Virus record (IMG/VR): IMGVR_UViG_3300010222_000171
Span: 4,817-68,816 of that record
DNA from: a virus
Reading direction: 5' to 3' (one strand)
DNA length: 64,000 nt
The notes below the pieces were generated by a model that saw only the letters and a list, made by a program, of their open reading frames with translations, did no database searches and was not told where the DNA came from. The translations under genes and the position numbers were made by a program. How positions within the stretch are numbered: position 1 is the stretch's first letter; each line of letters opens with the position of its first letter. This document shows positions 6,456-61,810 of this stretch, piece by piece.

Positions 6456-7718
6456 TTGACAAACGAAACTACAATCAGTTCGCAGAAACGTCAGCAAGTG
6501 TTCACTCTCGTCCGTGACGGGGGCGCAACATACGCCGAACTTGCCGAAGCTCTGGACATCAGTAAGTCCACAGCCCGTGACCACATCAACAACCTCCAGA
6601 ACATCGACGGTGTTTCCCTTGGTGTTCGGGAGGTAAATGGTGTGTCAGAGTTCTACTACCGGCCTGACGCGAAAGAGCACCCCATCAACCCGGACCAACC
6701 AACGGGCGAGCCCCGCTCCAAGGCCGCTGTCACGAGGGACGCAAAAGAGAAGGTACACGAGCTGATTCAGTACCTCGACCGGGACCTGAACGGTCGCGCA
6801 CCTGCTGCCCCCGACACGGGCTTATCGGTTCGAGAAAGCCATGAGGACATGGTGTGCCACCGCTCCGACGACCACATCGGGGCGAAATACCATGACGAGT
6901 TCGGCAACGCGACGTTCTCTGCCGAAATTGGCATCGACCGTGTTCGGACTGTCTCGGAAAAGGTGTTCGACCTAAAAGAGCGTCAGGAAGCGGCTGGCGT
7001 GGACTTCGACACAATCCACATCGTGATGGGCGGCGACCACCTCGACGGTATTGGAATTTATTCTGACCAGCCGTTTGAGCAGGAATTGTCGCTCCCAGAA
7101 CAACTGACAATCGCATCAGATGTTTATATGGAGTTCATTGATCGGGCGTCAAAAGAGTTCGAATCAGTCCAGGTTATCTGCCAGAATGGAAATCATGGAG
7201 AGCTTCGCGGAGACGGTATGGGTCCTGACGACAACGTGGATACGGCGTTCTTCATGACGCTCGACCGCCGTGTTCGTGATAGGAACTACGATAATGTAAG
7301 ATTTGTTCGTTCACAATCACAGAACTTTACTAACTTCCCCATTCGGGGTACCAGTCTAAACGATTGTGAACACCGCGGCCACCTCCGTCACGGTCAAAAC
7401 AGTCTCGAACATATTGGAACCAGTGCAGGAAAGAAGCGGTGGCTCCAGTGGTATAACCAGCATGACTTCGATATTGCATATCGGGGCCATTACCATGCCT
7501 TCAAGATAGAAGGCATTGCCGGAAGCAAAGTTATCCAGTCTGGCGCAATTGTACCACCGTCTGACTTTGAAGAGTCAATTGCAGAGTGGAGCGAACCAGC
7601 CGCAACCGTTCATGGAGCGTCTGACGATAGACCTTGTACTTGGCTTTACCCAATTGATTTCGAAGATCCGGTAGTTGAAGACGATAATGACGAAGAAAAA
7701 ATAAACATGGCGCTATAA
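6456..7718 (+). CDS. HTH plus calcineurin-like metallophosphoesterase
   Basis: N-terminal HTH (TYAELAEALDISKSTARDHI). Motifs SDDHIG, GGDHLDG, GNHG, HG and GHYH. Confidence 0.85.
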   Translation: MTNETTISSQKRQQVFTLVRDGGATYAELAEALDISKSTARDHINNLQNIDGVSLGVREVNGVSEFYYRPDAKEHPINPDQPTGEPRSKAAVTRDAKEKVHELIQYLDRDLNGRAPAAPDTGLSVRESHEDMVCHRSDDHIGAKYHDEFGNATFSAEIGIDRVRTVSEKVFDLKERQEAAGVDFDTIHIVMGGDHLDGIGIYSDQPFEQELSLPEQLTIASDVYMEFIDRASKEFESVQVICQNGNHGELRGDGMGPDDNVDTAFFMTLDRRVRDRNYDNVRFVRSQSQNFTNFPIRGTSLNDCEHRGHLRHGQNSLEHIGTSAGKKRWLQWYNQHDFDIAYRGHYHAFKIEGIAGSKVIQSGAIVPPSDFEESIAEWSEPAATVHGASDDRPCTWLYPIDFEDPVVEDDNDEEKINMAL

Positions 7719-53784: not shown

Positions 53785-53879
53785 TGGGCGAAAGGCTCTT
53801 GCTTGGAGCCTCGGATCGAGCTGGCCGCCGATCCCGCGAAGGCCCCTTATCGGTTTGGGGTCGGATGATGCCCATGGCC
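53785..53879 (+). ncRNA. type II hammerhead ribozyme A, variant core with inserted hairpin
   Basis: Stem II TGGGC/GCCCA, GAAA, stem III GGCTC/GAGCC, UC site at 53811-12, stem I GGATCG/CGATCC, core C-[insert]-GATGA and a pseudoknot. Confidence 0.6.
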
Positions 53880-53913
53880 CCAGAATGGGACGCAACCTAA
53901 CGGGGAAACAAAA

Positions 53914-59059: not shown

Positions 59060-59100
59060 TGTCCAAGTCGGCGTAGAGGGTTCGATTCCCTCTTGGACAT
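59060..59100 (+). ncRNA. tRNA-like minihelix (7-bp acceptor-like stem plus 5-bp T arm)
   Basis: TGTCCAA-gtcggcgta-GAGGG-TTCGATT-CCCTC-TTGGACA with perfect pairing. Confidence 0.7.
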
Positions 59101-59146
59101 TTAAGCACCTCTCGCGGTGCAATGATACAAGTAGCGGGACACGACC

Positions 59147-60075: not shown

Positions 60076-60099
60076 GACTCGTATTCGTTAGGTTGCGTC
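60076..60099 (+). promoter_or_regulatory. dyad promoter motif copy upstream of hammerhead C
   Basis: GACTCGT-N10-TTGCGTC. Confidence 0.65.
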
Positions 60100-60108
60100 T
60101 TTTGAAGC

Positions 60109-60178
60109 GGGCGAAACGCCGGGGATTCCCGGCGTCGGGAGCGAGATGGTCGCCGTTCCCCTGATGCTGCCCATGACT
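60109..60178 (+). ncRNA. type II hammerhead ribozyme C
   Basis: GGGC GAAA CGCCGGG-gatt-CCCGGCG TC GGGAGCG-loop-CGTTCCC CTGATGC T GCCC. Pseudoknot GGTCG/TGACT. Confidence 0.75.
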
Positions 60179-60211
60179 GCGGTGCGGGCTTGGGATGCAA
60201 CCTAATCACAA

Positions 60212-60672: not shown

Positions 60673-61356
60673 ATGACCCCCGAGTTACAACCCTGGATAC
60701 AGAATCACTATCCAGACTACGTTTCGGCGTTGCGTCGAGTGGAAAAGACACGAACATTGTTGCTCTCGGGGAGTCCCGAGAAAGCAGGTGAAATTCTGAG
60801 GAAGGCATACGTTTTCGCCGTTCTCAGTATCAGGACTGGCCTCGAACGCCACGAAAAAGGATTCACCCAGTGGTCTTCGGGTATGGACATCCGAGAAGCT
60901 GCGAAGGAAACGGTCTATCCTAACCAGAAAGCTGACTGGATGGAAGAAACGTTCCGATCAGTCGATTGGAATCAGTTCGGTGAGGCGGTCCAGTGTCACT
61001 TCGAGAAGGGGCGACACGAAACAGTCCTCGATCTCGTTGTTGACAAACTCAAAGGAACTTCTTACCGGAAGGGTGGCTTCGTACTCTCAATGTCCGGTGG
61101 CTACGAGTTCATGTGCATTGATTCGCACGTTGCTGACTTCGCCGGACTGGAGGACCGTACAGGAAATTCCCTCAGCTTCAACTCAGCGGGGGGTTATCTG
61201 AACCAGTGCAGCAAAGTAGTTGCGAAGCTCCCGAACCCGCTGAACCTTCCGCCGTTCCTACTGCAATGGGCAATCTATGATTGGCAGCGAAGCGAACACG
61301 CTCGCCACATGGCTTTCTACCGTGAGGTGCTTCCAGAAATTCTCTTTGAAGGATAA
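60673..61356 (+). CDS. HhH-GPD-like DNA glycosylase family protein
   Basis: GAGGTG ribosome-binding site. KLKGTSYRKGGF hairpin-like motif followed by CIDSHV. Confidence 0.55.
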   Translation: MTPELQPWIQNHYPDYVSALRRVEKTRTLLLSGSPEKAGEILRKAYVFAVLSIRTGLERHEKGFTQWSSGMDIREAAKETVYPNQKADWMEETFRSVDWNQFGEAVQCHFEKGRHETVLDLVVDKLKGTSYRKGGFVLSMSGGYEFMCIDSHVADFAGLEDRTGNSLSFNSAGGYLNQCSKVVAKLPNPLNLPPFLLQWAIYDWQRSEHARHMAFYREVLPEILFEG

Positions 61357-61381
61357 GATTTAAGTTTGCAGAATCCGAGTC
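61357..61381 (+). promoter_or_regulatory. dyad promoter motif copy upstream of hammerhead B
   Basis: GATTTAA-N11-CCGAGTC. Confidence 0.65.
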
Positions 61382-61388
61382 TTAGTAA

Positions 61389-61497
61389 TGGGCGAAAGGC
61401 TGTATCATAATCCTCAACTCTTATTTAAATGAGTTGTGTCCTGTGTTACAGTCTCAGTTCGGGAGTAGCCATCCGAATCCTGAAGATGCCCACGGCT
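61389..61497 (+). ncRNA. type II hammerhead ribozyme B with a 42-nt stem III insert
   Basis: TGGGC GAAA GGCTGTA...TACAGTC TC A-GTTCGG-loop-CCGAAT-C CTGAAGA T GCCCA. Pseudoknot AGCC/GGCT. Confidence 0.8.
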
Positions 61498-61519: not shown

Positions 61520-61810
61520 ATGACTCAGTACGAAACAACCATTGACGGAACATGGGCAAAAGGCAAGCTAACAATTCGTCCTGGTGAATCCATTCGATTC
61601 GTAGGTAGTGTAACCGGCTCTTTGTTGGACGACACCGAACTTGTGTTCCATGCTGACGGAGAAGGGGCGTACAGGTATGCTAAAGGACAGATGAGCGACC
61701 ATGCTCACGAACAGACACAGGCGCTTATCGTAAAACACGCCGAACAGGCTCTCATAGACCGGGGGTTTGACATCGATCCACGGGTCGCATCGGAGGACTA
61801 CGAGCCATGA
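61520..61810 (+). CDS. hypothetical protein
   Basis: First ORF after hammerhead B. Confidence 0.7.
   Translation: MTQYETTIDGTWAKGKLTIRPGESIRFVGSVTGSLLDDTELVFHADGEGAYRYAKGQMSDHAHEQTQALIVKHAEQALIDRGFDIDPRVASEDYEP

Follow-up and report, generated by a model that had tools for sequence, protein, structure and literature searches.

The hammerhead ribozyme at positions 61389-61497 is, judged by its sequence, a real and conserved long-stem form of a known ribozyme type. Its long stem III is tentatively read, at slightly under even confidence, as the cis-acting folded 3' end that a transcript-cutting ribozyme would give to the upstream mRNA. The ribozyme would be one of several RNA-cutting signals punctuating the early viral transcripts, and the hairpin would act in cis as a folded, possibly protein-bound or protective, 3' end of the upstream RNA. 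Ancestrally, this RNA would have been the mRNA of a small gene for a 49-aa protein with two CxxC motifs, the partner of the ribozyme in a mobile cassette. In the present genome, a 166-nt deletion would have removed that gene and left a promoter beside the ribozyme.

The window, that is the whole stretch of 64,000 nt that was analysed, belongs to a virus record of 72,184 bp that is classed as a provirus and is 96% complete. The HSP90-like protein of the virus shares ~38% identity with its counterparts in the Mincapvirus haloviruses HRTV-7, HSTV-2 and HCTV-6, which indicates a Hafunaviridae-like virus of haloarchaea. The hammerhead lies in the early region between two genes, and its identical sequence is present in the independent assembly SRR2630167 (L061). 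The surrounding features are as follows.

60673-61356, plus strand: upstream gene of 227 aa, related to halovirus proteins annotated as endonuclease III
61355-61383, plus strand: viral dyad promoter motif AAGAY-N19-GTCTT, with a TATA-like TTAA at 61360-61363
61520-61810, plus strand: downstream gene of 96 aa, function unassigned

The 227-aa protein has no Pfam or PHROG match. It carries a helix-hairpin-helix-like motif, and a dCTP deaminase gene often adjoins its gene in relatives; it may be an enzyme of base repair or base modification.

When searched with a strict descriptor of type II hammerheads, the 64-kb window gave only two matches, at 60113 and 61394. The second consists of the following parts.

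61389-61393, plus strand: 5' strand of stem II, pairing with 61488-61492
61394-61397, plus strand: core G12-A13-A14-A15.1
61398-61453, plus strand: extended stem III, a single imperfect hairpin of a 7-bp base and a 42-nt extension, kept in five viruses
61398-61404 with 61447-61453, plus strand: base of stem III, enclosing 42 nt
61405-61446, plus strand: AU-rich insert of 42 nt, 33% GC against 51% GC for the window
61415-61420 with 61431-61436, plus strand: inner helix of the insert, with a loop of 10 nt
61454-61455, plus strand: U16.1-C17, with the cut predicted after 61455 from the hammerhead consensus
61456-61479, plus strand: stem I and its 10-nt loop, arms 61456-61462 with 61473-61479, beginning with A-C at 1.1-2.1 and then G-U
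61480-61487, plus strand: core C3-A9 (CUGAAGA) and an extra U, common in these halovirus hammerheads
61488-61497, plus strand: 3' strand of stem II and 3' tail, of which 61494-61497 can pair with 61467-61470 in loop I

The core C3-U4-G5-A6-N7-G8-A9, G12-A13-A14, A15.1-U16.1 and H17 is complete, and all of it except N7 is invariant in five homologues. It is surrounded by a stem III of at least 7 bp, a stem I of 6 bp plus the A-C, and a stem II of 4-5 bp. Loops close stems I and III, and stem II is open, so that the type II permutation is present. The pseudoknot between loop I and the 3' tail has four invariant pairs and two more in some relatives (six pairs in L084), and other halovirus copies use different complementary words for it. 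In the relative L064, four pairs of stem I are changed on both sides. By core, topology and pseudoknot, the element is a type II hammerhead with predicted cleavage. The original prediction had described a canonical CUGAAGA/GAAA core, which the strict descriptor places where it was said to be, and an A-C mismatch at the base of stem I, which is present at 61456; the predicted cut after 61455 follows from the U16.1-C17 step.

The 42-nt insert with its inner CAACUC/GAGUUG hairpin was given correct coordinates, but it is a continuation of stem III rather than a loop on top of it. Above the 7-bp base it comprises a U-U mismatch, four more pairs, a 5x5 internal loop, a 6-bp inner helix and a 10-nt loop. 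Stem III as a whole is a single imperfect hairpin of 58 nt and 24 rungs. It folds in isolation at -19.7 kcal/mol (z -5.37), and none of 200 shuffles was as stable. A bulge-helix-bulge intron was rejected on inspection, as the 3-4-3 geometry is lacking and the internal loop is either symmetric or, as in L064 and L101, closed. A kink-turn was rejected in the same way, the hairpin having no D box. An ORF of 14 codons runs from 61388 through the insert and was also dismissed, since relatives have ACG in place of its ATG and a stop at codon 6.

The dyad pattern matches the window 10 times over both strands, against 0.76 expected, and the intergenic repeats of HF2 offer an analogy for its promoter role (PMC7230728). 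The copy at 61355-61383 is therefore treated as a putative promoter with a start near 61385-61390, from which a cut after 61455 would yield a 5' product of 66-71 nt. The fragment of roughly 70 nt claimed in the original prediction agrees with the length expected from this adjacent promoter motif, although its start is a predicted one; the same argument, and with it the same kind of start, underlies the about 30 nt given there for the other two copies. No run of five T occurs between the upstream promoter and the ribozyme. Once transcribed, the ribozyme would fold and then, as its intact core suggests, cut after 61455. The 5' product would carry the stem III hairpin of 58 nt at its end, together with a single overhanging base and a 2',3'-cyclic phosphate. 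The 3' product would be the downstream mRNA with a 5'-OH, so that the message of the 96-aa gene would begin with a 64-nt leader. In a read-through message from the 227-aa gene, the hairpin would form the end after cleavage. The 66-71-nt piece would thus be a consequence of the 166-nt deletion, and read-through messages from the upstream promoter would still be hairpin-ended. In HF1/HF2, the 5' end of a transcript was mapped at most 3 nt from the hammerhead cut (PMC3088659).

Homologues with a long stem were found by following neighbouring proteins and with a covariance model. The long stem is present in five viruses, represented by the window, L062, L084, L064 and L101; L085 and L086 are the same virus type as L084. 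Among 25 type II hammerheads of haloviruses that were surveyed, stem III measures 57-58 nt with 34-39% GC in these five, and 16-24 nt with 58-82% GC in the other 20. The original prediction had made conservation of the insert in relatives one half of its own test, and four other viruses do carry the long stem. The hairpins of the window, L062 and L084 are 96-97% identical, and those of L064 and L101 are 64-68% identical to this group and to each other, which leaves three lineages only. All five hairpins fit one 24-rung register, in which 84% of the cells are paired, against 27-40% when the register is slid. Three pairs are altered on both sides, and the L101 hairpin is nearly perfect (z -7.95). 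The insert of the window matches that of L064 at 23/42 positions (P ~1e-4 against shuffles), a match that at the level of sequence shows homology and says nothing on selection. The conservation counts over the three lineages are suggestive of selection but fall short of proof.

Most related viruses do not have the long hairpin. HRTV-7 and HCTV-6 gave no match to the covariance model, and scans for the long-form pattern in viral contigs, metagenome contigs and prokaryote genomes gave none or chance matches only; the long homologues all came by way of neighbouring proteins. Phage records were searched at the nucleotide level with both the region and the ribozyme, without a real match, and neither this genome nor 483 kb of halovirus loci held a donor or second copy of the hairpin. 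In the L064 copy (7122-7233), the 5' strand of stem II is able to base-pair across the site of the cut, and the predicted probability of the active fold is low; this copy may be slow or inactive.

The same conservation also suits an unlikely but substantial rival, by which the hairpin is an RNA domain of its own, a decoy or scaffold for a host or viral protein whose end the ribozyme defines. Such a domain would work free in this genome and in L064, or attached to mRNA in L062, L084 and L101. The halovirus hammerheads would then include a subfamily with a conserved 58-nt protein-binding stem III domain, released or exposed by the ribozyme, a proposal held with the same limited confidence. Three lineages retain the length of 57-58 nt, the register and a mismatch at rung 16, and across them five basal and two inner pairs are invariant. 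Between lineages, the basal arms of stem III are identical at 50/72 positions, against 13/36 for the arms of stem I, and the synonymous sites of the upstream gene are only 38% identical between the window and L064. Moreover, two lineages without the 49-aa gene keep the hairpin beside a promoter motif. On the other hand, a protein-binding domain has no known partner and is absent from most of the related viruses. Rfam returns only weak generic-hairpin microRNA matches, which are far below threshold and differ from one homologue to the next. The comparison with synonymous sites is weakened by genome mosaicism, and paralogous ribozymes may have swapped stem I.

The reading as a folded 3' end of an upstream message is favoured by the gene context. 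Where the 49-aa gene is present, the hammerhead always lies directly 3' of it.

L062, 3733-3882, plus strand: 49-aa gene, two CxxC motifs
L084, 7790-7939, plus strand: 49-aa gene, two CxxC motifs
L101, 3942-4091, plus strand: 49-aa gene, two CxxC motifs
L052, 601-455, minus strand: 49-aa gene, two CxxC motifs

The stop codon of this gene marks the start of the ribozyme in L062, L084 and L101; the link was predicted from the first two and then borne out in the third. The L052 gene seems to lack the usual stop and to run on into the ribozyme. Hammerheads are likewise preceded by more distantly related CxxC genes in L065 and L066. The hairpin of L062 would end a transcript of ~235 nt. In L084 and L101, the nearest promoter motif is ~1.7 kb upstream, and the hairpin would accordingly end a polycistronic mRNA there. 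The original prediction had taken the insert for cargo released as a small RNA. As a general purpose this is not supported, because three of the four relatives carry the same hairpin behind the stop codon of the 49-aa gene; release as cargo is possible, though not the best reading.

The 49-aa gene was not found in the present genome. The window corresponds to L062 minus 166 nt between two AG dinucleotides, with the promoter fused to the old stop codon. Loss here is the simpler history, since the gene precedes the ribozyme in four viruses if L052 is counted, and this genome appears to have lost it by a 166-nt deletion. In L084, the hairpin is 97% identical, yet the proteins of the neighbouring genes are mostly 48-62% identical, which argues that gene and ribozyme move between viruses as a cassette. 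One observation speaks against a 3' end as the function: the hairpin is retained in L064, where no trace of the 49-aa gene is seen and a promoter-like dyad lies just upstream, an arrangement that suits a stand-alone RNA equally well. Since both the window and L064 have a promoter motif close upstream, a short free product is predicted in two lineages.

End protection alone would be insufficient to explain the length of the stem, because a stem III that is short and GC-rich yields a blunt folded end too, and that of the L052 ribozyme measures only 16 nt. In favour of such protection, RNase R-type exonucleases require ~7 nt of single-stranded overhang (PMC12320835), although the relevant 3' exonuclease of haloarchaea is disputed (PMC10470531). 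The L052 ribozyme has the same loop I and stands behind the same 49-aa gene, which makes the extension dispensable.

This bears on a further reading, slightly more doubtful than a protein-binding domain, in which the extension is a tolerated passenger. An inverted repeat would have formed a single time at the stem III tip, where additions are tolerated by hammerheads, and been spread by the gene-plus-ribozyme cassette, the pairing of the repeat being kept by the need to avoid misfolding and by palindrome correction at the DNA level. Apart from the L052 orthologue, 19 other halovirus hammerheads apparently do without the extension. Its removal in silico left the pairing probabilities of stems I-III, and hence the predicted folding of the core, unchanged. 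Engineered aptamers are commonly joined at stem III (PMC12192606). Furthermore, the extension shows no strand asymmetry, and the copy of this genome has accumulated three private helix-weakening changes. Against a passenger, a neutral AU-rich 42-mer should vary in length, whereas the length is constant within 1 nt while 35-45% of the letters change. The insert match between the window and L064, which might be set against a passenger too, is a matter of homology and not of selection.

The private changes were identified by comparison with L062 and L084.

61405, plus strand: stem III A-U changed to U-U
61456, plus strand: stem I pair 1.1-2.1 changed from G-C to A-C
second pair of stem I: softened

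The pair 1.1-2.1 is G-C in L062, L084 and L064, and both the A-C and the G-U of the next pair are private to this genome among the five homologues. The folding energy of stem I is -6.9 kcal/mol here, against -10.8 kcal/mol. A mismatch at 1.1-2.1 slows hammerhead cleavage. The private changes suggest attenuation, or early decay after the loss of the 49-aa gene.

The lack of strand asymmetry also matters for the proposal that the insert acts as DNA or through the opposite strand, as a second promoter starting near the cut, an operator or a terminator of antisense transcription, with its TATA-like loop flanked by an inverted repeat. G-U is not favoured over A-C in the extension, whose minus strand folds as well in L064 and L101, so that its functional strand may be either one. 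In the window, L084, L064 and L101, a TTAA-like word in the loop lies 31-33 nt before the cut, and some hairpins terminate transcription in Haloferax (PMC7237163). The present hairpin folds on both strands. The TTAA-like word is interrupted by a G in L062, however, and the BRE position has no AA, unlike the dyad promoters of the virus. The genome holds no second copy, and the likeness of the insert to the HF2 promoter repeats is matched by 33% of shuffles. An HF2-like promoter repeat in the insert was accordingly rejected as a chance resemblance, and a DNA-level or opposite-strand role is considered quite improbable.

Least probable of all is that the insert is an antisense RNA to a viral or host transcript, or an allosteric sensor of cleavage, that is a natural aptazyme. 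An AU-rich single-stranded loop of 8-10 nt is available, and engineered sensors are usually placed at stem III (PMC12192606). In contrast, the best hybrid of the 42-nt insert with the viral genome reaches -32.6 kcal/mol and is equalled by 8 of 40 shuffles, so that the complementarity to viral transcripts envisaged earlier yields no significant target in the viral genome. The sequence is locked in a hairpin of -20 kcal/mol, the loop has no conserved local partner and its letters differ between lineages. The base of stem III is paired at a probability of 0.92-1.0 in all contexts tested, leaving no weak communication helix, and the extension points away from where stems I and II touch and so should not switch catalysis. 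The hairpin has no match in plasmid and phage records. Likeness to CRISPR elements came down to a CRISPR-DR64 match at chance level (15.6 bits, E 1.7, minus strand, none in L101), with no match in plasmid records, and an RNA anti-CRISPR or CRISPR-derived RNA was rejected.

Indirect support for a processing role comes from the genomic slot itself. In other relatives, the same slot holds a tRNA-like element in place of the hammerhead, which marks it as a processing site. Elements resembling an acceptor and T-arm were observed in the window (59060-59101), L063 (1710-1780), L065 (3160-3215), L066 (10700-10750) and L084 (3240-3300 and 6235-6290). They share the promoter-proximal slot of the hammerheads and lie directly after the endonuclease III-like gene in three relatives.

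Several further ribozymes and repeats were noted in this virus group. A third hammerhead in the window, at 53786-53880 (53790), is of type II and has its core interrupted by a hairpin between C3 and G5; this layout recurs in L057 near 15897 on the minus strand and in L067 near 12905 and 8426. The inserted hairpin of the 53790 hammerhead is formed by the word CCCT(C/T)ATCG, the most over-represented 10-mer family genome-wide, which is found on both strands and also inside genes.

45424, 46373, 53843 and 58711, plus strand; 9009 and 58491, minus strand: examples of CCCT(C/T)ATCG in the window

The relatives G001, G002 and G003 each have their own variant of this word, which looks like a recognition site at the DNA level. 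The 60113 hammerhead is enclosed by a 12-bp inverted repeat (60086-60099 and 60193-60205); its 5' half is contained in a dyad promoter, and the 3' half recurs behind the 53790 hammerhead, near 53889-53902. In the 60113 hammerhead (60161-60167), C replaces A9, as it does in L062 near 2488, and its orthologues in L052, L063, L064 and L084 have A at this position. An extra U after A9 is also found in type II hammerheads of the unrelated viral contigs L015, L022, L023, L024 and L031, and L023 contains up to four type II hammerheads in tandem.

The role of hammerheads in prokaryotic viruses has been an open question since 2011. The viruses described here provide a natural comparison, in which the same ribozyme has a long or a short stem III after one and the same small gene, with an adjacent promoter or none, and is swappable with a tRNA-like element, so that the role of each cleavage product is made testable. 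Protein binding by the hairpin, if real, would make it a natural functional domain carried on stem III of a hammerhead; should it be only a 3'-end structure or a passenger, it would amount to a modest structural variant. Long-stem variants also escape Rfam. At the gathering threshold of 37 bits for RF02276 (Hammerhead_II), Rfam has no match anywhere in the window. Below threshold, there is no match for the 61389 copy, 31.1 bits for the short 60109 copy and a partial match of 13 bits in L101. The 61389 ribozyme is missed because its long stem III breaks the model. A description of a conserved long stem III in this group was not found in a literature search that lay mostly outside subscription journals.

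Halovirus type II hammerheads have been known since 2011, including those of HF1/HF2 (Perreault et al., PMC3088659). Like the type II class (RF02276; PMC3088659), the present ribozyme has the same permutation and core, a short stem II, a pseudoknot between loop I and the 3' tail and an intergenic position in a prokaryotic virus. It differs in its stem III of 58 nt compared to ~20 nt, the extra U after A9 and the A-C at 1.1-2.1. The HHphage hammerhead of HF2 (AF222060, 10292-10359) is likewise of type II and in the early region of a member of the Hafunaviridae (PMC3088659, PMC7230728), and it follows immediately on a stop codon, a short distance ahead of the next gene. Its stem III has 19 nt and a short insertion interrupts its core near C3, whereas the core here is unbroken and stem III is long. 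Engineered stem III aptazymes (PMC12192606) similarly have their stem III tipped with an additional RNA domain, a resemblance that is positional only; in contrast to them, the present ribozyme has no weak communication helix, no known ligand and no predicted switching. The haloarchaeal tRNA-like element is unrelated to the hammerhead in structure and occupies the same promoter-proximal slot in related viruses, where it probably does the same job of defining RNA ends. As a signal for RNase P and tRNase Z, the tRNA-like element requires host enzymes and leaves a different end chemistry.
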